A stretch of DNA of 63,414 nt, the filler included, from Octopus bimaculoides (taxonomy: Eukaryota), in assembly GCF_001194135.2 (NCBI RefSeq). It is 4 parts of 3 records of this genome, joined end to end, with 100 filler letters (N's around TTAATTAATTAA, not from the genome) between each part and the next. Parts side by side here need not be neighbours in the genome. Positions count along the whole stretch, not along the records: positions 1 to 27,924 come from NC_068985.1; positions 28,025 to 55,578 come from NC_068986.1; 2 more parts are not named here. One strand, 5' to 3'. Each line of letters begins with the position of its first letter. Position 1 is the stretch's first letter. The position numbers and the translations under genes were made by a program. The notes under the pieces are model-generated. The model saw only the letters and a program-made list of their open reading frames with translations. It made no database searches and was not told the DNA's origin. This document shows positions 16,671 to 55,215 of the stretch, in pieces.

Positions 16671-16733
16671 TAATAACTGATGAGATGCCGGAGGAGATTT
16701 CCGCCCTGACATCCGAAACTCAGAGTTTTATTA
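16671..16733 (+). ncRNA. Minimal type I hammerhead ribozyme motif (in short repeat about 16671-16795)
   Basis: Helix I UAAUAA (16671-76) / UUAUUA (16728-33); core CUGAUGA (16677-83); helix II GAUG.../...CAUC; GAAA (16715-18); helix III ACUC-A-GAGU; cleavage triplet GUU with U17 at 16727. Confidence 0.75.
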
Positions 16734-18039
16734 TGGGACCTGAATAATTGTCACATATTTTATTACAGATAAATTCCTCTATTTTCATTGACAACCAATG
16801 CTGATGTGTTTATGTCCAAATCATGGCCATAGTCAAATGACTGAAACGAATAAAAGAATAAAAGAACATATATATACCTGCACATACACACACACACATA
16901 TATATATAATATATATACACACACACATATGGACATATATATATACATATGCCTCGCACACATGTGCTTATATGTACATATATTTATAGTAAATGCCAGC
17001 AATTAAAATGAGACATATTTTAAAGAGCTGAAATGCAAAAGCTTTCTAGTTTTCTTGAATCAGAGCACTTCATGACCCCGTTCATTTAACAGGTTTTCAA
17101 ACTGTGTTTAAGTGCAAGCAAAAACACCATTAATATTTTTGGTACACCTTATGAGAATATGCCTCTTTTAAGTTTTGCTATAATATTTTGATTTTACTTA
17201 TAATCTATGTTTTACCTATTTGTATTCTGAACTTATCTGTGTTATTCTCAATTCTTTGGAGAGTACATGGCACTAGAGATGCATCATTTTCTTTATTTGT
17301 TCGCTTTTCATAGGATGGTAAACCTCAGTTCATTTTCCTTGTTATTGTCCTGAGGAGGAACATTTTGTTCCATTTTTCATTTTCTGTGATTTCCTCTCCT
17401 TTTTTTCCCCCACCTTTCATATTTTTGTCAAGCATTTAGGAATATTCATCGGTAACTGTCGTTTCTTTCTCATCAAACAATCAAAGTGTAGCACCACAAG
17501 AAGGTACAGTTAAGGGTGATTTCTGATACTGAGCCTAAAGGTATTTTCTTTTTGATCCCCAGAGTTTCGGCAGATGGTGCTCTGGAAACTGGTGTTTGTT
17601 ATTTTCTTTGCTGTATTAGTTTTGTTTTCTTTGTTTTGTTTACTCTTCCCAATTCTTCCATACACCCAGTCCTAAAGTGTGTTTCATTCTGACAAATCTA
17701 ACAACTATGCTTTCTGGCATAAATCATTAATCTTATACCTATGTCTTGGAGTCTTCCACTAGATACAGTTCCAATTAAGGGTCTCTGATATTTTTGCATG
17801 TCATTAGGATATTGACATCTCCTAGGATACTTTGACCCTTTTCAACAGAAAATCACAACTAGCCATGCATCTATGTTGTATCTTAACCCATGCATAAATA
17901 TATAGCCAGAAGGATACCTGACAATTTCAACCTGTATTTTGGTTCTATAAGTACAGCATATCGTTTCACAGATGTTGCTTTTTTCTGATGTTATAATTTC
18001 TCCTAAGTTCTGAGAACTAATTACACCAGGTTCCAAATA

Positions 18040-18785
18040 GATAAGAGTAGCGAATCACCCCTTTGTAGGATGTATGGCAGTAGAAATGAAACAACCTCAC
18101 ATATTGTGAGTGAGTGTAGCAAGTTGGCCCCAAAAGCACAACAAAAGGAGGTATGATAATGTGGCTAAGTTCGTCCACTGGAGGCTATGTGAAAAGTACG
18201 GCCTGAACAGAACACGGAAATGTTACGAACATGAACCAGGAGGAGTCACCGAGAACAATGAATATAAGATAACGTGGGGTTTTACAATCCAATGTGACTC
18301 CCTAATTGAGGCTTGGAGACCAGATATTGTGGTAGATAAAGGAAAAAAGGAAATCAAGATTATAGATATTGCAATACCTGGAGATGCATGCATAAGTGAC
18401 AAAGAACTAGAAAAGATTGGAAAGTACAGACTACTAAAAGATGAAATTTCAAGAATATGGACTATGAGGAGAGTGTCTGTCATTCCAGTAGTTGTAGGGA
18501 CACTTGGAACACTAACAGCCAAGTTTGAGAAATATGTCAAAGAAATTGGAATTAAAATGGGAGCAGAGTAAGTCCAAAACACTGCTCTGCTGGAAACAGC
18601 TAAGAATTTGAGATTGGTACATGGATGTTGAATGTCTCCCACGATAATTAACAACCAAGTATCAAAGCTTATAATGTGCGGAAAGAGATCCTGTGAGACC
18701 TCTGACAGCAAGATGCTGTCTGCTCTCACAGAATCTACCAGAACAAACAAGACCAAACGTTCTGGGAAGTAAAACAATAACATGC
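18040..18785 (+). mobile_element. R4/Dong-type non-LTR retrotransposon 3' fragment (CCHC plus restriction-like endonuclease)
   Basis: CRMYGSRNETTSHIVSECSKLA (decayed CCHC), KRRYDNVAKFVHWRLCEKYG, WGFTIQCDSLIEAWRPDIVVDKGKKEIKIIDIAIPGD...KELEKIGKY (PD..D RLE motif), VIPVVVGTLG, then QNTALLETAKNLRLV and a short 3' UTR. Confidence 0.9.
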
Positions 18786-21532
18786 TTTATTACAGGTAAT
18801 AACACCTGAGAAAATATTCTAATTAGTTTTAAAAAGGTAGAGTGGTGTGTAAAGGAAATTTGGTTGTTGTTTCTCTCAGTTCTTCCTTTCATTTAATATG
18901 TGGAGCTGGTTCTTTGGACAACTCCAAGAGATGTGTATGCAAAATGATCTTGAACTTGTTTTTATCACAAGCAAGAACAGTTGGTTCTATATTAGATACT
19001 TTTGGAAAGTGACAGGAAAAATATAGAATATGAAGATGAAAACACCAGCTTATGAAGACAGAATATGTTATTGACTAGAATGTCATTTGTGTCAGAAGTT
19101 TTTGGCAAAAACTAAGGATACGGTAATATTAGAAAAGAGATTGATGAAAGTAACAGAAAAGGAAACATTTTTAAATTTCTAAAATGAATTATTATAATAA
19201 TTAAATTATTCTAGATTATTGGTTTCAAATTTTGATACAAGGCCAGCAATTTTGGGGGAGGGGAAAATCAATTACTTAACTGCTACTTATTTTACTGACT
19301 CCAAAAGGAAGAAAAACAAAGTCAACCTCAGACAAATTTGAACTCAGAACATGAAGATAAACAAAATGCTGCAAAGCATTTTGCATGGCATTCTAGCAAT
19401 TCTGCCAGCCTGCCATGTTACATATGAAAGAATTATTCTAAAATAATAGCGCTGCTCTGCACTACAGTTGGAATTCTAAATTACGGGTCTTAAAATCTTT
19501 ATCCGTCATCATCCTAATTCGATGGTTTGATAAATCAAAACAGAAATACTTTCCACTGCCTCTTCCTCTTCCTCACAAGGATTTTTCCCTGTTTCCACTT
19601 TCCAAGTTCCCTTGGCAGGCTTTTGTTTGGCCAAGGCTTTAGCAGAAGCCATTTGCTGAAGGTGCCATGTAAAGAAACGGAACTGCTTCTGATGCAAACT
19701 TCTTAGACACATATCTATTCCGGCATTGCCAGCTTTCATCATCGTCATCGTCATAATTTAATGCCCATTTTCCATGCTGGCATGGGTTGCACAGTTCGAC
19801 AGGAGCTAGCAAAGCCAGAGCACTGCACCAATCTCCATTGTCTGTTTTGGGAAGGTCTCTACAGCTGGATCCCTTCCTAATGCCAACTGCTTTACAGAGT
19901 GTACTGGGGGGCTTTTTATGTGTCACCATCACAGGAGCCTTTTATGTGGTGCCATCACCAGTGTTCTTTATGTGACACCAGTACAGGTGCTTTTTACATT
20001 TAGAAATTCTGTTTCTGAGTTCAAATTGAATATGAAACCATGAATACACTCAAAAATAAGAAACTGATGATTATTAAAATTTCGATTCTATCGTAATATA
20101 AATGTATGAGGTGAATAGTTCAGAAAGCATTAATTAAAAAGAAAGGTGTTTATTTTCAAGTAAAAATGTCTACTTTCAAGATGCCATATTGATACTAAAT
20201 TATCCTTTCTCTCTTAAACACACAAGATGTCCAAATTCCCATAATTCAAGCATTACTATATAGAGTTAGTTTGAAAAAGAGATTAGCATTTTTTCATGGA
20301 AACACTTCTTTTTAATTTCCTATTTTCAACTGATGGCGACAGATTAGAAATAATTGTGCAAAGATGGTGCTAAGATAATTCTAAATTACATTGACCCACA
20401 GTAGCACGTTCAATTTCAAAACAAATCTGTTATATAATTGTCAACATTCTGTTTCATTTGATTATTGCATTCCTTTCTGCCTTTTAAATTGCTTAACAGC
20501 TGCACACAATGGCATTTATTGAATTCCACTCATTCCATATTGTTTCTTTTTTTATCCAAGTGGCATATATGAATACATCATTTATAAAAGTACAAATTTC
20601 TAGGGTTTTATGAACATTTATTCTCTGACAGACTTCCTAAATGTCTGCGAATATTTCAGGAACCTTGTAATCTAATCTTCCAGTAAAATAACTATTAGAG
20701 CCTAGATTCATTGATTATAAGATGCATGAGCACAATGGTTCTGAGGTTATAGTGATGACTAAATGGCCAATAGTGCAAACCTTACTGGGGTCATTGCCTT
20801 GTACTGTTAAGGAACAGTACAAAACTATGCTTCCTCCAGTTTTCTTGATAGGGAAATATTGCTACTCATATTTCATAGTTAAGTGCTGTATGGCTTGGAA
20901 AGGTTTACACCTGAAAAGTCAATTGCTTCAGTATGCAATCATGCTCATAGTTTCTTTTTACTTTGAGACAAGTACACGCATTGCTTCATGTAAAATATTA
21001 GATTATCGATAAAAACAAATATTTTTGTGGTTAAAATCTAAAGAGGATTCATGTTCTTTCCATCGACTTCAACTCAGACGAGGAATCACACTGTTCATTA
21101 CCATCATCATCATCATCATCATCATCTTTTAATGTCCTCCTTCCATGCTGGCATGGGTTGGATGGTTTGACAGGAGCTAGTCTGGCAGAAGACTGCACCA
21201 GATTTCTGTGTCTGTTTTGGCATGATTTTTATGGCCGATGCCCTCCCTAATACCATCCATCCCACAGAGCAAGCTGAGTGCTTTTGACATGGCACCGGCA
21301 CATGAAGAAAAAAATCAAGTGAAGGAGCTTCTATGTGGCAACTCAATTTCCTAGAAATTTCAGCTAAATCTTTCTCTCAAATTAAACCTTTCACTATTAA
21401 ATTTTAATATTTAGGGCACACTGGATAATGCATTTCTCAACCAGGGCTTCCCAGAACCCTAAAGTTCTGCAAAAAGTTCCTAGGGGTTCTGCAAGAAAGA
21501 GTGAGATAAGCTAATGCTAATTTGATGATATA

Positions 21533-21563
<31 letters not shown>

Positions 21564-25272: not shown

Positions 25273-25314
<42 letters not shown>

Positions 25315-26700
25315 ACACTCCCACATACACACACACAAATACACTTTCTTGCATACACACACATAATAGAAAGACAGATAGATAGATAGATAGATACATA
25401 CATACATACATACATACATACATACATACATACATACATACATACGTGTATTTTAGATTTTAGTCAACATTCAGGGATTCCACAAACCCTGTGGAATAAA
25501 TCCTGTGATTATTAAGATTAATTAAACTGATGTAATTACAGTATCAATTATAAACAACAAAACACCATTCTTTAGAATTTTTGTAGACTTTCAAGGGTTC
25601 TATGTAGTTCCTGTCTTGCAGTTGGTTAACCAACAAGAGTTATAGGAAATTTCACCGTAGACATTTTATTGTAGGAAAATTTCATCATAAGCAATTTCAT
25701 TTTAAATAACCTCATCACATTCTTTTAATGTTTGATGTTGAATAAAGACTTACTTTTAATAAACCTTTAATCATTGTTTATAAAGAAGAAATGCTAATAT
25801 AATACACTTCATCATTGTCCTTTTAGCAAATTATCTTATGGCAAAATTCCTGGTGGTGAATTTTGCAGACATGGCCAACAACAAGGCTGAAGTATACGGA
25901 CAGTTGGAAAGAGACAGCAATTAACTTAAGCTTTTGTTTGCTTACAATTTGACCAGCTCTGAGTGTCTTATGAAACTTTTGAAACTCTTGCCTTTGTAAA
26001 CGACAAACAGAATGGTAAGGGACAATAAATGCTTCTGTAGTTTAGTCTTTCTCTCCGATTTATGATATACACACTTTAATTTATACTTATTCAGTAAGAT
26101 ACAAACATACACTATTAATATCCAGCACAAGTCCACATCCTCAAACAAAAGAAGAGTCTATATATTTAAACAAATGAACTAATATATTCACCGGATTAAT
26201 ATTGAATTCACTCATTTTTACTTTCTATTTAATATTCTAATAACACTTTATTATAATTTAAATGCACAAAGTCAGATGAAACAGGTTCAAATTCTATAAC
26301 TATTTTAGGTAATTAAATGGCTGTATCTGAGAACTATAAAAATACATCAGAAAGCTTTTCTACAATCTATATTAATTTCATGAGCAAGCTGTTTTGTTGA
26401 TTTTATCAACTGGAACCTTTGATAAAACCCATATTTATTTCCTAGCACGCTAACATTTTTCCCATGTCCAGACATGTTTACAATGAAAATAAGAAATAAA
26501 TTAAATTTATTTACATCATCATCATCATCATCTTTTAGTGTCCATTTTCCATCCTTGCACACCTCTTGTGCCCAGCTTTACTCTCAGGGTGCTTACATTC
26601 TGTTGTGCATGCACATTAGCACTGCACATCCAGCGAAGTATACTAGCTTCATTTCTTACAAACCTACACATGTTCTCAGTGGGCACAATCCCTACTTAAG

Positions 26701-26929
26701 AGCAGTTAAGAGCACGGGCTACTAACCCCAAGATTCAGAGTTCGATTCCAAGCAGTGACCTGAATACTAATAATAACATCGAAAAATACCTTAGGAATGA
26801 GAACCCAGGTTCGAAATTTCCCCAAGACACCTGAAGAAGGCTGGAGAGTATATCAGCCGAAACATTGTGTTAACAACAAACAAGACAAGGACAAATATCC
26901 ATCAAATGTAAATAATGTAAATAATGTAC
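26701..26929 (+). mobile_element. tRNA-headed short element carrying a hammerhead-like motif
   Basis: Anticodon-arm-like GGG-CTACTAA-CCC (26716-28), B-box GAGTTCGATTCC (26738-49), hammerhead-like motif at 26826-26871, and a TGTAAATAA repeated tail. Confidence 0.65.
26826..26871 (+). ncRNA. Minimal type I hammerhead-like motif (probably decayed at helix III)
   Basis: GACAC-CUGAAGA-A-GGCUG-gagaguauau-CAGCC-GAAA-CAU-U-GUGUU. Helix I is ACAC/GUGU, helix II has 5 bp, and helix III reads ACAU where a palindromic ACGU is expected (a CpG-type change). Confidence 0.6.
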
Positions 26930-27058
26930 AACCCCTACTTGTACCCTGTGAGTCCATTACCCAGGCCATCATTCATCACCCAACATGTTTTTATGTTGGG
27001 AAAATTCTATGTAAACTGATCTGTTTGTGATGAGAGGATTCCGTAAACCATATTTCCA

Positions 27059-27103
<45 letters not shown>

Positions 27104-27417
27104 TGTGTGTGTGTGTGTTTCAATTAAATGTAAGGATAAAATTTATATACGAATCTATCGAGTAGCCAGCATGTAAAACCAATTAAGGTAAAAAATTAAT
27201 ACCAAGTATATAATTTCTTAAAATACAATATTACATTAAGGGTTGTTGCGATAAGTAAGCAAGTGTGTATATTTTGATAAAGTAGTTTGACTTTAGCATC
27301 TCTTTCTGGCATTTGGCTTTACTTATAGTCACATCCCTTAATGTAATAATTATATATATATATGTATATATATATACACATATATACACATATATGCTTA
27401 TCTATATACATATATAC

Positions 27418-27459
<42 letters not shown>

Positions 27460-28133: not shown

Positions 28134-28729
28134 ACACAACAGGCTTTCTATCAGTTTCTGTCTACAAACTCCACTCACAAGGCTTTGGTCAGCCCAAGGC
28201 TATAATAGAAGACACTTGCCCAAGGTGCCATGCTATATGACTGAGCCCAGAACCATGTGGTTGGGGAGCAAGTTTCTTACCATACAGCCACACCTGTGCA
28301 CATGTGTGTGTGTGTGTAAATCGTACTATGTGTATAACCTTTTCAGGGGATGTGGGCATGCACATCCGTGTTCATTGGTGTGTTTTCTTTCTTTTATGTA
28401 TTGGTTAAGTTTGTGGAGCCTTTATGTGTGAATGCGGTGTGTGTAGGAGTACCATGTGTGTGGAAGTTTGTATCAGGGAGTGGGTGGAAAACAGTCTATT
28501 ACGTAGGTGTCAGCCGTGTTGGGGTGTGCGTGTTCATTTGTGAGTGCATTAGTGAATGCTCTGGTCAAACTCTTTGCTAGACTCCAGGGTATTGGTGGAG
28601 GGCACAAATTGAGGGACTGATAATTGTAGTCATGATGGGGCATGCAGGTATGATAGGCTGTACTTCCTTTTATGTGGGCAAGAATTAAAAATTTCACTTC
28701 TGCTATTCAGGTAAATACCTGGGCACTGA

Positions 28730-28925
28730 GTGCTCTTTAAAATCATGATTTCTCAGCCAAGCATAACCTCCACTTCCTGCTGCTATTGAAGTATGGTTTA
28801 CATTTCTCTAGGATCTTCCACTTTATACTGTACTTGGTGGTCCTTTCTTTCAAAGATCAAACATGCTTGGCTAGAGTTGTGGTGTTACATCTCTCTGGGA
28901 TGTTGAAGGAGGACTTGTGGTTGTA
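28730..28925 (-). mobile_element. Penelope-like element GIY-YIG endonuclease C-terminal fragment
   Basis: The minus strand reads GPFRTRYNHKSSFNIPERCNTTTLAKHV*SLKERTTKYSIKWKILEKCKPYFNSSRKWRLCLAEK, the typical FKxRYNNHKSSF...IKWKILEK...CxLCLxEK Penelope signature. Confidence 0.85.
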
Positions 28926-28969
28926 GCGGGTTCTGAAGGGGCCTATATGTGTGTGTGTGTGTGTGTGTT

Positions 28970-31357: not shown

Positions 31358-32819
31358 CATATAAATATGGATATGTACATGCCAACATATATAAGAACAT
31401 ATTCAAATATACCCTCAATAGTATAAATAATATAATTAACGTAACAAAACTTAATTCAAAATGTAAAATATAAGAGTAAGATGGCATATCAAATTTCAGT
31501 TTGAGAATCATCTAACTTATATGGAGGTTAGAGACGATAGTCAAAATATTCATATAAGTAAATTACAAACATACGTATATGTGTATACATGTATGCGTGT
31601 GCACACACATACATACATTTATATACATACACTCACATATAAACACATATAATATAAATTATAATCACTAACTGGAGCCATGAAAACTTCACGGAAAACA
31701 AAAAATGTAAGCATTTGTAAATTGTGTGCTGGTGGTGCCATGAGAAATGTTTCTATATTGGCTGAGGACCCAATATATAAAATACTGTAATTGATTAAAT
31801 TGTAGGAAAGTAAAAGTAACATCCAGAATTTGCTGTGGTTATGTATCTGTCTACTCTGAAAATACTGATAAACATTTAAAAACAAAACAAACCCCATTCT
31901 TTCAGTTACCACTCACTCTCTGTCTCACTCTCTCTCTCTCTCTCTCTCTCTCTGTCCCTCCTCTCTCTTGCTTTACTGCTCACTTCAAGTATACCTCCTC
32001 TGCTTAACACCTTTTATTTTTATTTCTGCCTCTCACTTCAGGTGTAGAAAGGTAACAGTAACATCCACAGGTATCTGCTAAGAGAGAGAGGCAAACAGAC
32101 AGAATAACTGTCAGACAGACAGACATATAGATAGACAGGCAGACAGACAGACAGATAGATAGGCCGCTATTAGGACTGGATTAACATCCATAGTGACCCT
32201 AACGACTAAAAAGATTTTCCTGCCTCTGTATTGGATCTAATACAACCAAGAAAAGGGGAAGTTATGTCCATAGTGAGTTCATACACTATAACACAATTAT
32301 ATTATGCAATACAGCTATACTGACATTTCGTTTCACAGTATGTTACTAGTATATGTTTATCAACAGCAAACATAGGTATCCTACTGTTCATAGAAATACA
32401 GACTAAATATACTCAATTACCATGAAAGAAATATAGAAACATAGTAGACATTATGTAACAGGTTTAAAGTAAATGAATGTTCTTTTTCTATGATGCAAAC
32501 AATTTAACCTAAGTTCAGATGTCTTATTAAGCAGACTACCCTGATATTTTCGTATTTCCTGTAGTGCAGCACTGCATAATCTTCAGTCATATCTGTTATA
32601 TGGTGAGGCTTCCCTAATTATACTCCAGGCAATTTCAAACTGACTATCATAGTCTTTTAATTGCCACACGTCTTCAACCAGTGATGTGATATTAGCTTTA
32701 TTATGAGCCTATGTAGTCTGTATTTGACGTCAGAAGTTGAGCCTATACAGATAAAGATATTAGTGTTGGTAGTTATATCACACTTGTAAACAATATTATT
32801 AGTTAGACATGTCCCTTTA

Positions 32820-33300
32820 AGCAGTCAATTAATCTGGCAGAATTGTTAGCATGCCGTGCAAAATGCTTTGCGGCATTTTATCCATTTTCACGCTCTGGTC
32901 TTCCACCAAGGTCAGCTTTGCCTTTCATCCTTTTGGAGTTGATAAATTAAATACCAGTGAAACACTGAGGTTGACTTAACCCCACCCCACCAAATTCCAG
33001 GCCTTGTGCTTATAGTTGAAAGGAATATTATTATTATTGTTATAAGGTGGTGAGCTGGAAGAATTGTTAGCATGCCAGGCAAAATGCTTAACAGCATTTC
33101 ATCCGTCCTTACATTCTGAGTTCAAATTCTGCTGAGGTCAATTTTACCTTTCACCCTTTCAGGGTCATTAAATTAAGTACCAGTGAAACACTGGAGTTGA
33201 TGTAATCAATTAGTCCCCTCCCCACAAATTTCCGGTCTTGTGCCTTTAGCAGAAAGGATGAATTTCAGGCCTTGTACCTTTAACAGAATGGATTATTATT
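32820..33300 (+). mobile_element. Two head-to-tail family-B SINEs ending in (ATT)n
   Basis: CTGGCAGAATTGTTAGCATGCC...GGCCTTGTGCTTATAGTTGAAAGGAATATTATT is followed directly by AAGGTGGTGAGCTGG... with a duplicated 3' end. Confidence 0.75.
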
Positions 33301-33313
33301 ATTATTATCATTA

Positions 33314-33563
33314 TACAGGGTGTGGCAGAAGGATTGCCCCAATTTCAAAGGTTAACAAAAAACAAACATGAAGATACAAGAAAAAACTTTGTATTTCTTA
33401 CAAATGCACAATGCTCTCCACTCCAGGCAATTGTGGGTACTCGGAAACAGAGAACAAAATGGCATTCAATGAACTTTATAGAAATACAAAGTTTTTCCAT
33501 GCATCTTCATGTGTTTGTTTATTAATCTTTGAAATCAGGGCGAGTTTTCTGCCATGCCTTGTA
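33314..33563. mobile_element. Tc1/mariner-type MITE with about 85-bp TIRs and TA ends
   Basis: TA-CAGGGTGTGGCAGAA...AAAAACTTTGTATTTCT pairs with AGAAATACAAAGTTTTT...TTCTGCCATGCCTTG-TA. Confidence 0.85.
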
Positions 33564-33695
33564 TAAGCAAGATGACACATTAGGAACAATAGTATTACTT
33601 GAAGTTTCAGTACAATTTCTATAGTGGTTAGTATTATTGCTATTACCAATGCCAGCAAGGTGGTTATTGTTTAATAGGATAGGTAGAGGCACAAC

Positions 33696-33931
33696 AAATT
33701 CAGCTACACTAGAATTGTTATGGCTATTAGTTGGTATACCAATATCTGTAAGTTTCCATTAGGAATAGTTATTATACCCACCTCTTCTTTACTGGTTCTG
33801 TGTGTGCTAGTGGAAATGTGGTTACATGCAGAACCAGTTAAGAAGTGGATACAATAACTATCAATGATGAAAACTTTACAAATATTGGCATCCCAACTAA
33901 TAGCCATAATAGCTCTAGTGTATCTGAATTT
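33696..33931. repeat. Imperfect foldback (long inverted repeat, about 16-nt loop)
   Basis: AAATTCAGCTACACTAGAATTGTTATGGCTATTAGTTGG pairs with CCAACTAATAGCCATAATAGCTCTAGTGTATCTGAATTT. The inner arms TTCTTTACTGGTTCTG and CAGAACCAGTTAAGAA also pair. Confidence 0.8.
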
Positions 33932-34493: not shown

Positions 34494-34698
34494 GATATTA
34501 TGCCAACTATATCTCAGGAGGAAAGTCACAGAATAGAGATCATGCAGAAATATGGTAAACAAAAAGTGTACAAAGTGATTTCTCATTATTCTGGTCTTGA
34601 CTCTATGGACATCAGCGTGAATGTGGACGACATTGTTGGTGTTATCAAAGAGCAAGACCCAATGGGGAACAAAAGCAAGTGGTTTGTTGACAATGGAG
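34494..34698 (+). CDS. DNMBP: Dynamin-binding protein (Tuba)/ARHGEF37-38 family exon: post-BAR linker and penultimate SH3
   Basis: Acceptor ttatttcag| and donor GGAG|gttagt. DIMPTISQEESHRIEIMQKYGKQKVYKVISHYSGLDSMDISVNVDDIVGVIKEQDPMGNKSKWFVDNG matches the family-diagnostic GVIKxxDPMG...WxxDNG motif. Phase 0 to 1. Confidence 0.88.
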
Positions 34699-35802
34699 GT
34701 TAGTAATCTCATTCTAATTTTCCACACAAAATAATTATCTAACAAGCAGCGACTGACACACATATTCTGTAGTGTTGTCAAATTTTTTATAGTTTTTTTG
34801 GTTTTTTTTCCACAATCCTTTTACAGATCTCAGGGGTATTTTTTATGGCTTAGCCACAGGAGGAAAGACAGAAAAATCCCTGAAACTGCTGAGAGCAAAT
34901 TATTCTCAGAGTAGAGACCTTTCCCAAATGCTTACAACAAAATAATTCCACCAAAGTCTCTCCAGGGTCAGGTCAGGTGATGGTATTGACCCTTTGAGTA
35001 CCAATCAACCCAGCTGAGACTACCCCTTGTTCTATGATACAAACTTCCAGTTTTAAAGTGATCTAAATTAAAACCTTCCATTAAAGTTTCATGTTAATAC
35101 ATGCTCTTAATACCTACTTAATAATGACAACATTTCTACAGATTCCTTCATTATTTTCAAAATTAATTGAAACAAAGACTATGGCAACTAAATGATATTT
35201 TAAGTCTATCATTTCATGAAAAGCAAACCTTTGATCAAAGATACTCTAATCTTTTTCTCAAGTATAGTATATCTATGACAGTATCCAATACAGTATCCAA
35301 TACATCCTTCCTTTTTTCAAAAAGTTGGATGTGATTTGATGGAGAACTGATGTTGTTTCTAACAGGTTGAATGACCACGTAGAGGAATCCTGCTTTGGAT
35401 CATTGACTTTTATTTTATTGATCCTGAAAAGACAAAAATCTTGGTTGATACTTTGGATAAAATACCATTTGTTTGTCTAGCCATTATACTGGTATTTGTA
35501 AGGGTGAGGTATATATCTGATTGCTATATATTACTTGTTTTATCTATCCCATGAAAATGTCCTTAGTATTGAGCCTAGCGAGATTTATACTCAGAACAAA
35601 GAAAACAAAACTAACTACAATATTTTATCCTTAGTCACTTTTTCCTGTTTGTCGTGATTGTCCTAGTGACCAGAAAAATATTGATCACTAAGCTATTGAT
35701 TTCTTTATATTAACATGAGTTTTTATTATCATTGTTTAATCCCAGTTCAGCTATGATCATCTCATTTTGTTTTCAGACATGTTCATTCTTTTTTTGTTTT
35801 CT

Positions 35803-36030: not shown

Positions 36031-36455
36031 GACAGTATGATTAGAGACGTTGGTTGCTATTTTTAGCATGTTGAGCAACTATGTAGAGGCTCCCTCATTG
36101 GCTTCTATAGATTCCAGTTTATGATAAGGGCTCAACCAATCTTAGCTAGATTTCAACTTGGAATTCAGATGAGAAGATGCATATAACAAGGCATTTGATT
36201 GCTTTTGTTAACTCCGATTTTACATTTTTCTCTTGGTTTGTAACAAGACCAACTTCTGTATTATCAACTAAGTCACTCTTCATTATATTACCGATACTTT
36301 TTTTATTGACTCTCCAGAGAGATGACAAAAAAGGTTAGAACTTGAACTCAGAATGCAGAAGAATAAACTTTCTTCAGCACTATATATGCTATTTTCTGTC
36401 CCTCTACTATCTCATCCCAAATAAGTGATTTCCCAGATTGTCACCAAACTATGAA

Positions 36456-36545
36456 TTTGATATTATGTAAATAGAGGAATTTATCTGTAAATAGTGTGAC
36501 AATTATTTGGTAGCCATGATGAAACTCCGAGTTTCGGATGTTGGG
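36456..36545 (-). repeat. Truncated copy of the hammerhead-bearing repeat, identical to 38849-38938
   Basis: The 90 bp TTTGATATTATGTAAATAG...GTTTCGGATGTTGGG are read identical at both positions. This copy contains only the GAAA/helix III half of the ribozyme. Confidence 0.85.
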
Positions 36546-37030: not shown

Positions 37031-37266
37031 CTGTGAAAGGATTTGTTCCGAAAAGTATTCTGTGTAACCCTAATCCCGGAGGCGATGAGGAGAACTACAA
37101 AGAGGTCACTGAACCCCATATTTATACAGAGATAGAAGACAAGGCGTCTCTGGCAGCCAACAAAGCTACCTCTGAAGATTGGCGTCATGTCTATGAACAA
37201 AATGTAGAAACGGAGTCTGACCTTCGTCTGCCTCCTCCCCCAGAAGCATCTCTTGCTTTTGACGAG
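37031..37266 (+). CDS. DNMBP: DNMBP-family exon: end of SH3 and inter-SH3 linker
   Basis: Acceptor tgttacag| and donor GAG|gtcagt. Phase 1 completes NG-A-VKGFVPKSIL (KGFV SH3 end), then NPNPGGDEENYKEVTEPHIYTEIEDK...LPPPPEASLAFDE. Ends in phase 0. Confidence 0.85.
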
Positions 37267-38796: not shown

Positions 38797-38877
38797 GTGT
38801 GTGTGTGTATTGATAGAAAAGGTAAGATAACAAAAGAAAGAAAGAGACTTTGATATTATGTAAATAGAGGAATTTAT

Positions 38878-39066
38878 CTGTAAATAGTGTGACAATTATT
38901 TGGTAGCCATGATGAAACTCCGAGTTTCGGATGTTGGGGCGGAAACCCACGCCGCCATCTCTTCAGTTATCTGGCCTGAAGAGATGGCGGTGTGGGTTTC
39001 TGCCCCGACATCCGAAACTTGGAGTTTTATCATGGCTACCGAATAACTGTCACATATTATTTACAT
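38878..39066. repeat. Near-perfect foldback of about 88-bp arms with a 9-nt loop; each arm carries a hammerhead core
   Basis: The left arm ends ...GCCGCCATCTCTTCAG (38966), the loop is TTATCTGGC, and the right arm starts CTGAAGAGATGGCGG (38976). Confidence 0.9.
38911..38971 (-). ncRNA. Minimal type I hammerhead ribozyme motif
   Basis: Minus strand GAUAA-CUGAAGA-GAUGGCGG...CCGCC..CAUC-C-GAAA-CUC-G-GAGU-U-UCAUC. Helix I has 4 of 5 pairs; the architecture is the same as 16671-16733. Confidence 0.65.
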
Positions 39067-39094
39067 ATATATATATATATATATCATCATCATC

Positions 39095-39640
39095 ATCATC
39101 ATTTAACATCTGTTGTACATGCTGGCATGGGTTGGATGGTGCGACCAAGGCTGCTGGTAAGCTGGAAGGTTGCACCAGACTCCAGTCTCATTTGGCATGG
39201 TTTCTACAGCTGGATACCCTTCCTAATGCCAACCACTCCAAGAGCATGATGAGTGCTTTTATGTGCCTCTGGCATGGGTGCTATTTGCATGACACCAGTA
39301 TCTGCTATGACTGCGATTTTACTTGACTTGACGGGTTTTCTTCTCAGGTATGGCATAATGCCAAAGGTCTTGGTCACTAGTCATTGCCTCTGTGAGACCC
39401 ATGCTTCATACTTCACCACCTCATCCCATGTCTTCCTGGGTCTACCTCTATCACGGGTTCCCTCCACAGTTAGAGATCAGCACTTCTTTATACAGCTGTC
39501 CTCATCCATATGCATCACCTAACCATACCAGTGCAGTTGTCTCTCTTACACACCACATCTGATGCCTCTTCTTCCCAACTTTTCTTTCAAGATGCTTACA
39601 CTCTGTTGTACATGCACACTGACATTGCATATCCAGTGAA
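39095..39640 (-). mobile_element. RTE LINE 3' fragment with (GAT)n tail
   Basis: The reverse complement encodes ...WYGxVMHMDEDSCIKKC*SLTVEGTRDRGRPRKTWDEVVK, followed by the RTE UTR. Confidence 0.85.
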
Positions 39641-40251
39641 TCATACCATATATATATATATATATATATATATANNNNNNNNNNNNNNNNNNNNNNNNNN
39701 NNNNNNNNNNNNNNNNNNNNNNNNNNNNNNNNNNNNNNNNNNNNNNNNNNNNNNNNNNNNNNNNNNNNNNNNNNNNNNNNNNNNNNNNNNNNNNNNNNNN
39801 NNNNNNNNNNNNNNNNNNNNNNNNNNNNNNNNNNNNNNNNNNNNNNNNNNNNNNNNNNNNNNNNNNNNNNNNNNNNNNNNNNNNNNNNNNNNNNNNNNNN
39901 NNNNNNNNNNNNNNNNNNNNNNNNNNNNNNNNNNNNNNNNNNNNNNNNNNNNNNNNNNNNNNNNNNNNNNNNNNNNNNNNNNNNNNNNNNNNNNNNNNNN
40001 NNNNNNNNNNNNNNNNNNNNNNNNNNNNNNNNNNNNNNNNNNNNNNNNNNNNNNNNNNNNNNNNNNNNNNNNNNNNNNNNNNNNNNNNNNNNNNNNNNNN
40101 NNNNNNNNNNNNNNNNNNNNNNNNNNNNNNNNNNNNNNNNNNNNNNNNNNNNNNNNNNNNNNNNNNNNNNNNNNNNNNNNNNNNNNNNNNNNNNNNNNNN
40201 NNNNNNNNNNNNNNNNNNNNNNNNNNNNNNNNNNNNNNNNNNNNNNNNNNN

Positions 40252-40650
40252 ATAACAGAGGAATTCAAGACAGGTTGCCCCTGGCAGCTCCTCTATGCTG
40301 ATGACCTGGCCCTCATAGCAGAATCACTACCGGAACTAGAAAATAAATTTTGGGTGTGGAAGCAAGGTTTGGAATCAAAAGGCTTTAGAGTCAATGTAGC
40401 AAAGACCAAAGTTCTAGTAAGTAGGAAGGCGAACCCATCACACACACCCTCAGGTAGGTGGCCCTGCTCGATGTGTAGAAAAGGTGTAGGTAAAAACTCC
40501 ATAAGATGTACCCAGTGTAAGCTATGGATACATAAGAGGTGCAGCAACATCAATGGAAGATTAACCAAGAAGATAGCTTTAATGTGCGGCAGATGCATAG
40601 GGGCAATAAACACTACAGATGCTCAGAAAACAGATTCCATCACACTCCCA
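40252..40650 (+). mobile_element. RTE LINE RT fragment (YADD and Cys-rich PHD-like insert)
   Basis: ITEEFKTGCPWQLLYADDLALIAES...GRWPCSMCRKGVGKNSIRCTQCKLWIHKRCS. Confidence 0.9.
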
Positions 40651-40679
40651 CTGCTTGAAAGGAACTCAGCCACTTTGCC

Positions 40680-41760
40680 TCCGTCAGGCCCAATGTTCAA
40701 AAGTGATTTTTTTATGTGCCACCAGCATGGGTGCACTTGACTTGATGGGTCCTCTTAAGCAGAGCACATCACCAAAGGTCTTGGTCAGTAGTCATTGCCT
40801 CTGTGAGGTTCAAAGTTCTAAGATCATGCTTCACCACCTCATCCCATCTCTTCCTGCGTCTACCTCTACCACAGGTTGCCTCCACAATTAGAGAGTGACA
40901 CTTCTTTACACAGTTGTCCTCGTCTATACACATCACATGACCATACCAGTACATTCTCTCTTGCACACCACATCTGATTCCTCTTATGCCTAACTTTTCT
41001 CTCGATGCTTACACTCTGTCGAACATGCACACTGATATTGCACATCCAGCAAAGCATACTGGCTTCGTTTTTCTCAAGCCTATGCATGTCCTTGGCTGTC
41101 ATAGCCCATGTTTCACTGCCATGCAGCATAGCTGTTCGCACACAGGCATCAAACAATCTGCTTTTCAGTCTGAGAGAGAGGCTCGTTGTTGCCAGCAGAG
41201 GTAGGAGCTCTCTGAACTTTGCCTAGCCTAATCTTATTCTCAGAGCTATGCTCTAGAATAACCCCCTCTACCACTAACCTGGTTGCTTAGATACCAGAAG
41301 TTATCTATTACCTCTAGCTTGCCCTCCTGGCAGTTGATGGAGTCTATTTTCTTCAGCATTTATTATTCCTATGCACCATACAAAAGTTAGTTTCTCTGTT
41401 AACCTTCCTTTGTTGTTGCTGCACCTTTTGTGTGTCCAAAGCTTACACTGGGTGCATCTTATGGAGTTTCTACCTACACCTTTTCTACAGATTGAGCAGG
41501 GCCATCTACCTGAGAGGATTTGTGATTTGTCTACCTTCCTACTTACTAAGACTTCGTTTTTTGCCAGGTTAACTGTAAGGCCCTTTGATTCCAGACCTTG
41601 TTTCCATACCTGGAACTTCTTCTTTAGCTCAGGTAGGGATTCAGCTATAAGAGCAAGGTCATCAACATAGAGGAGCTCCCAGAGGCAGCCTGTCTTGAAT
41701 TCTTCTGTTTTACCTAGAGGACTATGATGAACAAGAGGGGGCTGAACTCCATCCCCATAG
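40680..41760 (-). mobile_element. RTE LINE fragment (YVDD to C-terminus), inverted relative to 40252-40650
   Basis: Minus strand CLWELLYVDDLALIAES, WPCSICRKGVGRNSIRCTQCKLW, RTAMLHGSETWAMTAKDMHRLEKNEASML and WYGHVMCIDEDNCVKKC. Confidence 0.9.
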
Positions 41761-43707: not shown

Positions 43708-43899
43708 TTATACATTGCTGAGTATGCTTTTCAATCTGGAGGCCTCAACCAAGTATCTTTGTTTGAGGGCCAAGTTGTGACAGTCCTTGCTAAACAAGAT
43801 ATGGAAGGAAATGAAGAATGGTGGCAAGTAGATGCTGATGGAAATATTGGTTATGTCCCTGCTGCCTATATTAGAAAAATTGATGCCACACCTACATGA
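43708..43899 (+). CDS. DNMBP: DNMBP-family terminal coding exon: C-terminal SH3 and stop
   Basis: Polypyrimidine tract plus atag|, then LYIAEYAFQSGGLNQVSLFEGQVVTVLAKQDMEGNEEWWQVDADGNIGYVPAAYIRKIDATPT*. The DxxGNxEWW...GYVPxxYIRK motif matches the Tuba C-terminal SH3. Phase 0 fits the previous exon. Confidence 0.9.
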   Translation, partial: LYIAEYAFQSGGLNQVSLFEGQVVTVLAKQDMEGNEEWWQVDADGNIGYVPAAYIRKIDATPT

Positions 43900-46709: not shown

Positions 46710-46747
<38 letters not shown>

Positions 46748-49233: not shown

Positions 49234-49266
<33 letters not shown>

Positions 49267-49704
49267 AACAGTATAGAGAGTAAGTGTTTAAAGCCTCAGT
49301 CGGAAATGAAAACAAGTCCCAAGTACTGCATACATTGAGATCAAACATTGTAGAACTCAAAATGTTTAAAGACTACAGACAAAATATATAAGCAGTACAG
49401 ATATAGACTTAATAATAAAGGCGCTAAGTTCATTCAAATCCAAAGAATAAAGAATATGTGTAGATATAGGAAATATTTTAAAGATAATTGACTAAAATGT
49501 AAAAAAAAATCAGAAACATAATAAATGTGAAGCTAAATTTCCTTTTTAAATCCATTGCAACCGCAATCATTTAGATTGTTTTGTGTTTGATGTAATCAGG
49601 ACCTAAAACTACTCAAGTTTTTATGAAAATCTTTATAACTTACAGGTTGTGAAAAGAACCTTTCAAAGCAAACCCTTTCTATGTATGACTGTCTGTCCCC
49701 CACC

Positions 49705-49766
<62 letters not shown>

Positions 49767-51271
49767 NNNNNNNNNNCTCACTCTCTCAACAAGTACACAT
49801 GCATACACACACATATGGCTGACAAACAAAAACATTCAAAGTTGTTGAAAATCCAATTCCAAGGTTGTGACTTTTAAATGAAAGCAGTTAATTTTTGCTT
49901 TGTTTTTTTTTTTTTTAATCTTTTAAGGAATATTTTCAATATTGATAAACTTTCAAAGTGTTTGTATGTGTTATTAGGTTTTTTTAATTTCCACACTATG
50001 TAAATTGTGGAGAAAGCCAAGTTGCATAATGATTTTAGTAATACCAAGCAATGTATTCTGTTTAGTTAACAGCAGATAAAGGGAGATCATTCTATTTATC
50101 AGATACCTGAAAACAAAAATGTGATAACTAGAATCTCTGATTGTTGTTGTTGTTTGAAACTGAAATATACTGCCAGTAATTATATACATAATTCTTTGAA
50201 TTATAACCCAGAGTAACAGAAGTAGAACCAACACAACAATAGCTGATATTTCTTTATGATGCTAAGTCCCCACCCTTGGCAAACAATTTATTTGGGGGTC
50301 TCTTCTTTAAAAATATTTTTAAAGAGCTATCTCAAGTTTGAAGCAGTTATAGTAAAAATACAAATATTTGTAACAGAACAAAAACTCATTTATTTAGTTT
50401 TGGCTTCTAATTCCTGGCTATTATTCCTCAAATTTATTTCCTAGCTAAATTTGCTTATTTAAATCCACCTTTTGGCTATATTTGTCAATATTTTCTATCT
50501 CAGCAAATGCTGGTTCAAGAACAGAGTTTTCTGTAAACAACTCTTATTATGCCAATCTTCTAATAACCAATCAAAATCAAAGGTCTATGTGTACACACAC
50601 ACGCACGCACTCACACACATATGCACTCACACACATAATTTGACTGCCATAAAACCGAATACTGCAAATATGTATTTCTGCCAACATTTTCATGTTTATA
50701 TTTCTTCAAGAGTTTTTATGATATTTTTAGTTAATAACCATGTCAACTCATATTTAAATTTACAGCTTTTTTAATATTAACTCTGGGGGTGTGGTATNNN
50801 NNNNNNNNNGGGGGGGGGGGAGTTGAGAAGTGAGTTGGTAGAAATGGTAGTGCTGGACAGCATTTAAATTTCATTTGGTTTACTCTCCAAGTTCAACTAC
50901 TGCTGTAGTTTGATCTTTTTTATTTTCCTTTAAAAAAAAGTCTTTGGATTTAATAGAATAAGTACAGTGATATTGCTTGATCCAGTTGATTAGATCTTTC
51001 TACAGAAATTGGCCTTGCACCTAGCGAAAAGAAATCAGTAGTGTTTGTATTTATTGTTTATATATGGTGTAGCCTCTCCACAATTATTTTGGACGTCTAC
51101 CTGCCTATCCATCTATCTATGTGTTTAATGCAAGTCTTCCAATAAGAATTATTGGTCACCTTATGTAAAAGTTTTCTGAATATAGAAATAACTATGGAGC
51201 CAATTATTTTAGTTGAGCTCACCTGGTACCACTCAGATTTTGCTAGCCTTCTCTCTCCCTCCTTCTCTCTC

Positions 51272-51316
<45 letters not shown>

Positions 51317-52899
51317 CGTGCTGTTTTAAACTGAACCACTGAGAAAACTTCAGTCCTGTTTTTTTTTTTCTCTTATTTCTTTTTTTCAAAATTTATTGTA
51401 GAGCAAACTTGCTCTCTGTCCTTCACTACATTCAAAAATTTCTTCATTTCAAACATCTCCTATCTCGGGGTAAACTATGTGTACAATCATTTGATATCAT
51501 GAAAATTCAAGCAGACCTAACAAAACAAAAAAAGGTAACATTGTGTAACAGTCACCATGGTCTGATAAACTTCAAAGCACCTTCAAGAACATTCTTGTAG
51601 GAGCAATAACAAAACCAAAAACAAAAGCAAAAAAACTTTGATGAATAAAAAATCAATTGAATTTTAATTGCATATGTTGTTTTATTTGTTGTGAAATTAT
51701 TAATGGTTTAATGTGGTGGATTGGCAGAATTATTTGAATGTTGGCAAATATACCTTGTGATATTTAGTTACAACCCTTTATGGGCTGAGTTCAAACCCCC
51801 ACCTTTCATCCTTCTAGAGTCTGTAAAATAAAGGCAATTTGATCAACTAATCTCGCCTGCCAAATTTGTGATCTTGTAACTATATTAGAAATGATCATTA
51901 ATGAAATGTCCTTGCTCCACTCCTTAGTCATTTAAGGCTGCATTATCCAATGTATTCTTGTTTTTCAGACAATAGTGTGCAATTTGAAGATTTGACTGTT
52001 GTTACTAGCTGGCTGAGCAGCTGTGTATATGTTCTTATATTCTGGGTGACTGAATTACTGATTACATCACAAAGCACCTATCACCAGGAGTAGTATAAAC
52101 TGTTGAGGTAATATGTGTATATTGTAATTCATTCAAAGATGAGCCTTTTCTTCATTGCTAGTTCTCCATTTCTGATGTGTTCTTCAAGACATCATGCTCA
52201 AAAAGGAAATTCAGAATAGTGAGAGAGTTAAGCTACTTCAGCTTTTAATGGAAGAATAAACTCTACTACATGTACCAAGAACTTTTCTCTCTTGTTTGTA
52301 CATTTTAACATGTGTATATGATATAAAGGTGTGTGGCCTCATGGTTAAAATGTTGGTTTCACAATCATAAGATTGTGGGTTCAGTTTCCAGATCAGGCAA
52401 TAATTTTTGTCCTTGACCAAGGTATTTCATTTCACATTGCTTCATCCCACTCATTTGAAAAATGAGCACCAATTTAGAGCTGATGCAGTCTTCTCTACCT
52501 CCAGCTATCACATCCTAGATGCTCTCAGTCAAAGGTATGATATCAGGAGGATGTTTGTGAACTGCTCACGACTACATGGGCACCTAAAACAGTTAGCAAA
52601 AGAAGGGTACATGGAAATTCATACTCACCTGCAGGTGACAGGTACCGGGCAGGTTGGTTAAGAAGTTTGCTTTATAATCATGAGGCCTGCAATTTGATAA
52701 TTCTATTCAGCATGTGTCTTATACCATAGCTACTAGCAAACCTAAGAAATGTGAGTGAAATTGGATAAACAGGAATTATGTGCAAACTCTTTGAATGCAC
52801 TGTACTTTTAACACAAAGCACCTGACTTGTCATGTAATGTCACATTGAGGTTATTGAATATCAAGCTAAAAGTAGCAGTGTAAAATACTTAGCCACATT

Positions 52900-54850
52900 A
52901 TGATACAATTAGAGAGAGAGTTAGCCTAGATGAGATGCAGTTTGGCTTTGTGCCAGGGAGAAGCACCAATGATGCTATATTTCTGATAAAACAGCTGCAG
53001 GAGAAATACCTAACCAATGATAAACCTCTGTACTTGGCCTTTGTTGACTTGGACAAAGCCTTTGACAGGGTCCCTCAATCCCTTATCTGGTGGAAATGTG
53101 GAAACTAGGGAGAGGTGTGGTTGGTGAGAGCTGTATAAGCCATGTACAGGGGTGCTATCAGTAGGGTGAGGGTTGGCAATGAGTCCAGCAAAGAATTCAG
53201 GGTACAAGTAGGGGTTCACCAAGGATCAGTGCTCAGCCCCCTCTTGTTCATCATAGTCCTCCAGATAATAACAGAAGAATTCAAGACAAGCTGCCCCTAG
53301 GAGCTCCTCTATGCTGGTGACCGTGCTCTTATAGCTGAATCTCTACCAGAACTAGAGAAGAAGTTTCAGGTATGGAAGCAAGATCTAGAATTGAAGGGCC
53401 TTAGAGTTAACCTAGCAAAAACCAAAGTCTTAGTAAGTAGGAAGGCAGACAAATCACAGACCCCTTCAGGTAAATGACCCAGTTCAATCTGTAGAAAAGG
53501 GCATAGGTAGAAACTCCATAAGATGTACTCAGTGTAAGCTCTGGACACATAAAAGGTACAGCAATATCAGAGGAAGGTTAACAAGAAAACTAACTTTTGT
53601 ATGTTAAAGGTACAATAAGCGCTGAAAATGTGCATAAAATAGACGCTAGGGGTAGTAGATAGTGTCCGTTATCTAGATGACCAAGTTAGTAGTGGAGCGG
53701 GGTGCTCCGAGAGCATAGCTGTGAGAATAAGATTAGGCTGGGCAAAGTTCAGAGAGCATCTGCCTCTGCTAGCAACAAAGTGCCTCTCTCTCAGAGTGAA
53801 AGGCAGATTGTATGATGCCTGTGTGCGAGCAGCTGTGCTACATAGCAGTGAAACCTGGGTTGTGACAGCTGAGGACATGCATAGGCTTGAAAGAAATGAA
53901 GCCAGTATGCTTTGCTGGATGTGCAATGTCAGTGTGCATGTTTGACAGAGTGTAAACATCTTGAGAGAAAAGTTAGGCATAAGAGGAATCAGATGCGGTA
54001 TACAAGAGAGACAACTGCACTGGTATAGTCATGTGATGTGTATGGATGAGGGCAGCTGTGTAAAGAAGTGCTAATCTTTAACCTGTTAGACCCAGGAAGA
54101 CATGGGTGAAGTGGTGAAGCATGATCTTCAAACTTTGAGTTTCACAGAGGAAATGACTAGTAACCGAGACCTTTGGTAATATGTTGTGCTTAAGAAGACC
54201 CATCAAGCCAAGTCAAATTGTAGTCATGATTGATGCTGGTGTCATAAAACTGGCATCCATGTTGGTGGTGCATAAAGGGCAGAGGTAAAATGGCTGAATT
54301 CCTCTCAAGTGTTGGGCCTCACAGAAGCAATGATTGAGACCTTTGGCATTATGTCATGCTTGAGAGGAAGACCCATCAAGCCAAGAAAAATCAGTCATGC
54401 CAGATACCAGTGGAGATAAAGCACTATTACACTCTTGGAGCAGTTGGCATTAGGAAGGGTTTCCAGCCACAGATAACCATGCCAAATCAGACTGGAGTCT
54501 GGTGTAGCCTTCCAGCTTACCAGCCGTGGTCAGTTCTTTTCGAGTGTTGGGCCTCACAAGGCACTGACTGAGACCTTTGGCATTTGTTTTGCTTGAGAGG
54601 AAGACCCATGAAGCCGAACAAAATCACAGTCATGGCAGATACTGGTGTTACACAAATGGCACTTGTGCCAGTGGAACGTTAAAGCACCCATTACACTCTC
54701 AGAGTGGTTGGTGTTAGGAAGGGCATCCAGCTGTAGAAAACCATGCCAAATCAGACTGGAGTCTGGTGCAGCCTTCCAGCTTACCAGGCCTGGTCAAACT
54801 GTCCAACCCATGCCAGCATGGACAATGGACGTTAAATGATGATGATTATG
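52900..54850 (+). mobile_element. 5'-truncated RTE LINE (RT, C-terminus, 3' UTR, (GAT)n tail), with stops and frameshifts
   Basis: LDEMQFGFVPGRSTNDAIFLIKQLQEKY...AFVDLDKAFDRVP, VGVHQGSVLSPLLFIIVL, ELLYAGD (decayed YADD) and RIRLGWAKFREHLPLL. Confidence 0.92.
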
Positions 54851-54980
54851 AGATGGCGGTGACATTGACTGGACCATTGTAATAATCTCACTTAAAAACA
54901 ATATGATATTCAGCAACCTCATCATCATCACCATCATATGTATGTATATGTGTCTATATATATATATATATATATAAACA

Positions 54981-55215
54981 CTTGCAGTGTGGAAGGTGTT
55001 TATAAGTCATTTAAGAAACATACAAAAACCATTAGATTCACTTCAACATTTAAATTTAATTTGCTAAAATATTTTCATCACTTTGAGACCGCGACCTGTT
55101 CACTGACAAAATTCTATGCTGCATCTCCATGTTTCTTAAATTTCTAAATGGCTTATAAATACCTTCTACGCTGCAATTGTTTTCGTTCCAGCACACGATC
55201 TCAGATCAGGTCACT
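54981..55215 (-). mobile_element. Short element with inverted arms enclosing a hammerhead-like motif
   Basis: TTGCAGTGTGGAAGGTGTTTATAAGTCATTTA (about 54982) is inverted-complementary to TAAATGGCTTATAAATACCTTCTACGCTGCAA (about 55145-55176). A small hairpin ACTTGC-TAT-GCAAGT lies at about 55213-55227. Confidence 0.6.
55058..55110 (-). ncRNA. Candidate hammerhead ribozyme with G3:C8 core variant
   Basis: Minus strand UUUGUCA-GUGAACA-G-GUCGC-ggucucaaa-GUGAU-GAAA-AUAUU-U-UAGCAAA. Helix II has 5 bp including two GU pairs, helix III is the palindrome AAUAUU, and helix I has 6 of 7 pairs. Confidence 0.5.

Follow-up and report, generated by a model that had tools for sequence, protein, structure and literature searches.

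Minimal type I hammerhead ribozymes (min-HHRs) have been known since 2014 from the ends of metazoan Penelope-like elements (PLEs), in many families and thousands of copies (Cervera & De la Pena, PMC4209133; this and most other papers are cited here from extracts). A stretch of 63,414 nucleotides of the Octopus bimaculoides genome (assembly GCF_001194135.2), hereafter the window, carries three families of short repeats with such motifs: family 1 (at 16671, 38911 and relatives), family 2 (at 26826) and family 3 (at 55058). The probability that all three are type I hammerhead motifs, likely at PLE 3′ ends, and that family 3 has mostly a swapped G3:C8 core for which slow cutting is predicted, is put at about three in four.

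The supplement of PMC4209133 gives the min-HHR consensus as NNN CUGANGAH G..C GAAA N NU H NNN, and the core covariation in those extracts is U3-A8, in contrast to the G3:C8 of family 3. Covariation of the 3:8 pair in nature has also been described by Perreault et al. 2011 (PMC3088659), where the extract gives U3-A8, A6C and U15.1-A16.1, and not G3-C8. The latter core is known from the laboratory. Poseidon of Anolis carolinensis (PAc; Frangieh et al. 2024, PMC11167929) resembles the present case in its PLE hammerhead, its tail at one end and the absence of RNA-seq reads ending at the cut site, and its engineered C3G/G8C double mutant, which has the same core as family 3, partly restored cleavage, with the protein needed. 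In PAc, whose open reading frame (ORF) is known, G3:C8 is a laboratory product, whereas in family 3 it is the natural majority. Partial rescue of hammerhead cleavage by C3G/G8C has also been reported as general (PMC8495972), and a G3-C8 variant is mentioned as active (PMC3884650).

Truncated copies in inverted orientation, a one-sided tail and insertion into microsatellites have been described for PLEs (PMC8557442), as have opposite-strand pairs of min-HHRs (PMC4209133). Non-LTR retrozymes (LTR, long terminal repeat; PMC7229834; bioRxiv 10.64898/2026.07.22.740005), which like the window families are short non-coding animal repeats with type I hammerheads and a likely PLE origin, are defined in these extracts by head-to-tail tandems and circular RNA, neither of which was seen here. 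In O. vulgaris, 31 PLE families have been active recently (PMC13282606), and the main text of that 2026 repeat annotation does not mention hammerheads or ribozymes; octopus has no entry in one supplement file of PMC4209133, and a literature search by listing found no paper on Penelope hammerheads in octopus. A natural G3:C8 hammerhead was not found in the literature covered, which holds engineered uses only; subscription papers fall outside that coverage, and an earlier report is possible. Judged from sequence, family 3 would be a high-copy variant whose G3:C8 core is otherwise recorded, in the literature covered, only as a rescue mutant made in the laboratory, the rest of the class being known.

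Hammerhead motifs in the window

The strict type I descriptor demanded a Watson-Crick N3:N8 pair, a 4-bp helix II beginning with G and allowing one optional bulge, GAAA, a near-palindromic helix III, H17 and helix I. It matched the window at 16677 and 26831 (+) and at 38966 and 55103 (minus) only, which are the four named motifs. Among 200 dinucleotide shuffles (500-base blocks; mean 0.04 matches) 192 gave no match, 8 gave one and none reached four. This significance is somewhat overstated, because the descriptor was written and tuned after the candidates had been seen. The families are mutually unrelated, the best cross-family alignment having an E value of 0.15 (BLAST). The hammerhead motifs of the three families occur non-randomly in the window, and the claim of a preliminary description of this DNA, that they belong to three families with unrelated flanks at these places, is borne out.

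The same description had proposed a search with both Rfam and a type I descriptor, and only the latter recovered the motifs: Rfam cmscan of the window (E ≤ 10) gave no hammerhead among the best 150 of 153 matches, and Rfam on 26660-26960 gave none. An earlier, looser scan, run without a shuffle control, yielded 10 matches that included two of the four named motifs and missed family 1; the eight others fail the strict descriptor and were dropped.

Could the motifs be chance look-alikes in an AT-rich, repeat-rich genome? The tuning of the descriptor after the fact, the eight weak matches of the looser scan and the Rfam result would suit such a reading. It is nevertheless very improbable, as no shuffle reached four matches, the core of the family-1 copies is kept and varies at N7 only, and the majority letters of family 3, described below, mend exactly the broken pairs. 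For family 3 chance is already largely refuted.

The family-1 motif at 16671-16733 (+) comprises CUGAUGA, a 31-nt helix II region, GAAA, ACUCAGAGU, U17 and helix I; the core strand at 38911-38971 (minus) is CUGAAGA. Four copies of the family are present in the window and not two, those at 38976-39072 and 36453-36545 being absent from the preliminary description. Helix positions are paired in 95.7% of 46 cells, and helix I holds the single double change (G-C/A-U). The 9-nt helix III segment is nearly palindromic: between two copies, 8 of its 9 bases can pair (-7.4 and -9.7 kcal/mol).

Family 2 at 26826-26871 (+) reads CUGAAGA-A, helix II, GAAA, ACAU, U17 and a 5-bp helix I. It matches the min-HHR consensus except at 15.2/16.2, where C and A make helix III non-palindromic, with two of four bases pairing between copies; this mismatch is likely a decayed CpG. 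The minimum-energy fold has the hammerhead shape for this copy only (z score -2.68; 6 of 200 shuffles equally good).

Family 3 at 55058-55110 (minus) reads GUGAACA-G, helix II, GAAA, AAUAUU and U17. G3 lies at 55103, C8 at 55098 and G12 at 55076; the cleavage triplet is UUU, and the predicted cut falls between 55067 and 55066. All six bases of the helix III segment AAUAUU pair between two copies.

All three families thus have CUGANGA/GAAA/UH in type I order, canonically in families 1 and 2 and only with 3:8 swapped in family 3. Further resemblances to the min-HHRs of PMC4209133 (extract) are a palindromic helix III with or without a short insert, the occurrence of many unrelated families per genome, mostly as solo copies, with opposite-strand pairs and, in families 2 and 3 only, an unpaired base after A9 with G10.1-C11.1 (A in family 2, G in the majority form of family 3). 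Besides the swapped core, family 3 differs by this G, which stands in place of H. In family 1 the base after A9 is lacking, G12 is preceded by an additional C, and helix II is long and interrupted. The label "minimal" of the preliminary description accordingly suits families 2 and 3 and not family 1, with its long helix II region and 9-nt helix III segment, and the self-complementary helix III that was held to favour dimers is present in families 3 and 1 and not in the 26826 copy.

The G3:C8 core of family 3

The segment 54982-55225 was matched to four of 24 listed public runs at 80% likeness and with an 8% reporting floor. Three of them are contig sets from DNA, for organisms A, B and C (3951, 7901 and 10796 records matched), and the fourth holds RNA reads of A (1853 reads matched out of 12,895,792, about 6% of the run). 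The depth-weighted majority in the DNA contigs (A/B/C) has T>C at 55065 (99/98/97%), A>G at 55077 (92/86/76%) and at 55080 (95/94/93%), and C>T at 55064 (65/56/58%), the last a split between U-A and U.G that is paired either way. The majority letters differ from the 55058 copy where that copy breaks pairs. The majority form has a 7-bp helix I, five Watson-Crick base pairs in helix II, including G10.1-C11.1, and an unchanged palindromic helix III. Other common variants (55085, 55087, 55090) lie in loop II, and at the stem position 55092 variant letters make up 4.6-7.3% of DNA depth.

The rows listed for the four runs at the 8% floor contain no change in the core strand 55097-55103. They include every change of runs X1 (20) and X11 (25) and 28 of the 30 of X8, whose other two are one C>T and one T>A; 23 further rows lie outside the listing. 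Changes of the class G>C do not reach 8% in any of the four runs. The single C>G in each DNA run is at 55127, and the RNA run has one more C>G, at a place not among the rows listed. Since C8 and G3 are not reverted at the 8% level, G3:C8 is the state of family 3, although a C3:G8 subfamily below 8%, or less than 80% alike, would escape detection. What the preliminary description had merely hinted at, a swapped 3:8 pair, is therefore the core of the whole family, backed at population scale by thousands of contigs from three organisms. In each DNA run, the depths added up at the core exceed that of single long pieces by a factor of about 3-4 x 10^4; as such a sum is no copy number, this is read only as a copy number roughly of order 10^4. 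A 23-base family-3 pattern gave no match in viral and genome contigs and one in metagenome contigs; this match, with neither GAAA nor the 3′ strand of helix II, was dismissed as a chance hit.

The swap could also mark a dead ribozyme, fixed in a master element that did not need cleavage, with the fold kept by recent descent or protein binding. The UUU cleavage triplet and the lack of cleavage ends in the RNA run speak for this, and G8C alone slows cleavage about 10^5-fold, with C3G rescuing it partly (PMC8495972). On the other hand, both changes fall on one core pair and are complementary, while the other core bases and all helices are intact in three organisms; by rough reasoning, two neutral core changes would do so less than 1% of the time. 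A dead ribozyme is considered unlikely on balance, and retains some weight because cleavage was dispensable for insertion of the anole PLE in vitro (PMC11167929, extract).

The core bears on searches as well as on catalysis. Descriptors restricted to CUGANGA, as used in several PLE surveys, would miss this high-copy family, which bears on claims that some PLE groups lack hammerheads. Family 3 also offers a natural test of the need for cutting in PLE hammerheads, since G3:C8 is reached by way of single mutants that are inactive in vitro. If the G3:C8 core is active, an animal retroelement lineage would have crossed inactive single-mutant core states and kept amplifying, unseen by CUGANGA searches. 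The fuller proposal, that one Penelope-type family of octopods, numbering tens of thousands of copies, bears a natural G3:C8 hammerhead that is catalytically active, and that beside it lies a tRNA-headed short interspersed element (SINE) with a borrowed PLE hammerhead end, is offered tentatively, at slightly less than even odds.

The RNA of family 3 fits passive read-through of embedded copies, without sign of cleavage or circles. Mate directions at the core are about equal (~370 versus ~362), and 63% of the reads continue into unlike sequence. Circular RNA, whose presence had been suggested, was looked for in this one complementary DNA (cDNA) run: no go-back joint is found among 15 of 129 joints listed, which concern part of the family-3 unit only. 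A fragmented cDNA library may not show cleavage ends and is not a test of catalysis. The read-end check is weak, because the same blank has been reported for the active anole PLE hammerhead (PMC11167929).

At 55028, 55033, 55154 and 55156, A>G or T>C changes amount to 16-27% in organism-A RNA, where the DNA contigs under that species label have 0.6-2%. These could reflect A-to-I (adenosine-to-inosine) editing of inverted pairs; it weighs against editing that C>T and G>A are also raised in RNA and that the individuals differ. More decayed letters are also seen in RNA at 55076, 55080, 55087, 55090 and 55092, G12 being changed in about 15% versus 1-2% in DNA contigs. This excess may stem from old copies in host transcripts, from loss of cleaved RNAs, or from a bias of contigs to common words.

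Origin of the three families

Families 1-3 look likely, by their sequence layout, to be PLE 3′ ends, with back-to-back inverted pairs, a one-sided tail and microsatellite targets. In family 3 the pair is flanked on both sides by (TA)n, and depth collapses at 55126-55143, the junction of its two copies. Joints from 55111 to 55156 or 55170, together with the letters between, are consistent with such a back-to-back arrangement elsewhere in the genome. Further copies extend beyond the hammerhead on its 5′ side (loose contig ends, median 53-167 letters). The family-1 copies at 38846-38975 (minus) and 38976-39072 (+) lie back to back, their 112-nt arms 80% complementary and separated by 9 nt. The predicted fold of a transcript of this pair is one long hairpin (-156.9 kcal/mol, z score -25), which in this model would lock both hammerhead motifs. 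The truncated copy at 36453-36545, 98.9% identical to 38846-38938 and differently flanked, points to either local conversion or a subfamily of young age.

Each family most likely represents the hammerhead-bearing end (a pseudo-LTR piece) of a separate PLE lineage, left as short, mostly decayed and often back-to-back copies. In a tandem parent transcript, two hammerheads would pair via their palindromic helix III segments, which in family 3 read AAUAUU, with the cut falling after U17; cutting would be slow and probably protein-assisted, as in the anole element. The PLE protein, with its reverse transcriptase (RT) and GIY-YIG domains, would then copy RNA 3′ ends into AT-rich or microsatellite targets, and insertion would often add an inverted, 5′-truncated second copy. 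The family-3 master lineage would have moved from C3:G8 to G3:C8, with the tertiary Watson-Crick pair kept, before it amplified. Solo, decayed or trapped in a long hairpin, the copies in the window are unlikely to be active.

Several results weigh against this reading of the families as PLE hammerheads. The three copies other than that at 26826 do not fold as a hammerhead alone (z scores -1.22 to +0.17). Covariation in family 1 is no better than in shuffles (253 of 500), a comparison that four copies leave without power, and double-sided covariation is not seen in family 3, where the base after A9 is G against the H of the published consensus. Letters at the level of the family cover family 3 only, and not families 1 and 2. 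The 1853 RNA reads of one cDNA run show no pile of read starts or ends, and their strands are about equal. Finally, tblastn with 153 PLE-like proteins found no PLE ORF remnant beside families 1-3 in the window.

The preliminary description regarded the repeats as non-autonomous retroelements mobilised by Penelope RT/GIY-YIG. In one such reading they would be true non-LTR retrozymes (head-to-tail, self-cleaving, circularising and reinserted by PLEs), of which the window would hold solo offspring. The short units with no ORF nearby, the young family-1 pair (98.9%) and the report that retrozyme monomers are common and PLE-derived (bioRxiv 10.64898/2026.07.22.740005, extract) agree with this. Yet the window contains no array of at least two head-to-tail units with a complete hammerhead, nor any head-to-tail copy; retrozymes usually have canonical hammerheads with loop-loop contacts (PMC7229834, extract); and the absence of a go-back joint among the 15 of 129 listed and the 5′ extension of the family-3 contigs speak against it too. 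Because of the inverted pairs, the lack of head-to-tail copies and this 5′ extension, 5′-truncated ordinary PLE ends fit at least as well, and retrozymes are regarded as improbable. The part of the description that saw diverse PLE-type type I motifs is supported, with high abundance for at least family 3.

For family 2 alone, and compatibly with PLE ends for the others, a further origin has to be weighed: a tRNA-derived SINE, transcribed by RNA polymerase III, that bears a PLE-type hammerhead and 3′ end, like Sm-alpha of Schistosoma. Family 2 is a 230-bp insertion whose 13-bp direct repeats (12/13 identical) are likely a target-site duplication, a feature by which SINEs are recognised. The sole GTTCGANNCC B-box match in the window lies at 26740, about 90 nt before the hammerhead core, and by eye an anticodon-loop-like 7-mer stands 21 bases ahead of it, the spacing of class I tRNAs. 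An A box is not evident in the head, its region being missing or damaged in this single copy; ARAGORN gave no tRNA at default and noise alone at relaxed scores, and Rfam no tRNA on the + strand. Moreover, the tRNA-like head and the hammerhead may be two adjoining insertions. The SINE origin is a serious candidate that falls just short of an even chance. Sm-alpha and Sj-alpha (PMC6765202, extract) have a promoter-bearing short element followed by a hammerhead, an arrangement that family 2 may match; they differ in their canonical and often tandem hammerheads, family 2 being one solo copy with a minimal motif and a putative head.

Two features of family 1 are added here. The pair forms a near-perfect hairpin of about 90 bp at 38860-39072, in the last intron of the host gene, with a microRNA-like score below Rfam thresholds; as modelled, it is likely a double-stranded RNA substrate, and the Rfam microRNA-like matches at 38915-39027 arise from the inverted pair. 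The 3′ end of the family (16765-16776, 38861-38872) contains ATTCCTCTATT, which also sits before helix I in the Acropora Neptune example of the PMC4209133 supplement; this may be chance.

Penelope remnants, host gene and neighbouring repeats

Table 1 Features of the window. The last column gives the basis of each entry or a remark.
Feature	Position	Strand	Basis or remark
Family 1 copy, hammerhead 16671-16733, canonical core	16671-16790	+	sequence, strict descriptor
Family 1 copy, hammerhead ~38905-38975 (named as 38911-38971), first half of inverted pair, last intron	38846-38975	minus	descriptor
Family 1 inverted copy (motif 38977-39040), core intact, lacks 5′ strand of helix I, runs into (TA)n	38976-39072	+	
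Family 1 copy, truncated to GAAA, helix III and the 3′ part	36453-36545	minus	
Family 2 insertion, 230 bp between 13-bp direct repeats	26698-26927	+	repeats 12/13 identical
Partial tRNA-like head of family 2	26705-26749	+	B-box match at about 26738-26749
Family 2 minimal hammerhead, textbook form	26826-26871	+	extra A after A9, G10.1-C11.1 pair
Family 3 first copy of back-to-back pair: hammerhead and ~75 nt downstream	54984-55126	minus	
Family 3 hammerhead, G3:C8 core, helix positions decayed in this copy	55060-55111 (named as 55058-55110)	minus	
Family 3 second copy, inverted, 5′-truncated, ~60-nt extension absent from first	55145-55236	+	
Broken C-terminal GIY-YIG region of Neptune/Nematis-like PLE with stops and frameshifts, flanked by (CA)n/(TG)n	28614-28943	minus	
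7-bp hairpin and core-like remnants, ~300 nt after ORF remnant	28316-28375	minus	not confirmed as hammerhead
Second, more distant PLE GIY-YIG remnant, absent from the preliminary description	32427-32824	minus	tblastn
Last three coding exons, host dynamin-binding protein gene	~34494-34698, 37031-37266, 43710-43899	+	tblastn with O. sinensis protein

The preliminary description placed a decayed fourth hammerhead beside a Penelope ORF. The GIY-YIG remnant at 28614-28943 is real: it has 947 HMMER matches at E ≤ 0.001, with two Octopus proteins among ten looked up, and it matches the C-terminal end of P0157 (E 2e-12), a homolog of 813 aa in which RT, linker cysteines and CCHH can be recognised by eye. 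Pfam detected GIY-YIG weakly in one of ten homologs and nothing in P0157, and a word-based protein search with the GIY-YIG fragment found nothing. The hammerhead itself is not confirmed; the earlier parse of 28316-28350 has no helix II and GAUU for GAAA, and a second parse is also incomplete. Neither this remnant nor that at 32427-32824 has a confirmed hammerhead. About 100 nt after the second one, at 32312-32369 (minus), lies a weak U3:A8-type look-alike (UUGAUAA, a damaged hairpin and GAAACG), which fails the strict descriptor.

The window is AT-rich, microsatellite-rich animal DNA that includes 4712 N. An SH3-type exon at 34494-34700 has 89% identity to the dynamin-binding protein of Octopus sinensis, and tblastn found no exon of this gene upstream of the third-last in the window. 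The family-1 copies at 36453 and 38846-39072 sit in its last two introns. The features at 16671, 26826 and 28316 (window coordinates) precede the third-last exon and probably lie within introns; because the upstream exons were not found in the window, the intronic position is shown for the 36453 and 38846-39072 copies only. The 55058 motif is 11 kb beyond the stop codon.

Besides numerous copies from two or three SINE-like families, the window is filled by decayed ORF fragments resembling long interspersed elements, at 39273-41745, 53233-54855 and 18007-18568 (by eye RTE-like and of the restriction-like endonuclease type). Palindromic elements of 200-250 bp that are 68-84% self-complementary and resemble miniature inverted-repeat transposable elements are found at 63107-63305, 33311-33566 and 33696-33931, and the strict hammerhead descriptor has no match in them. 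Exact duplications flank N gaps at 9667-9890/10094-10317, 3819-3873/4109-4163, 8847-8912/8932-8997 and 56345-56403/56414-56472, and are probably assembly overlaps.

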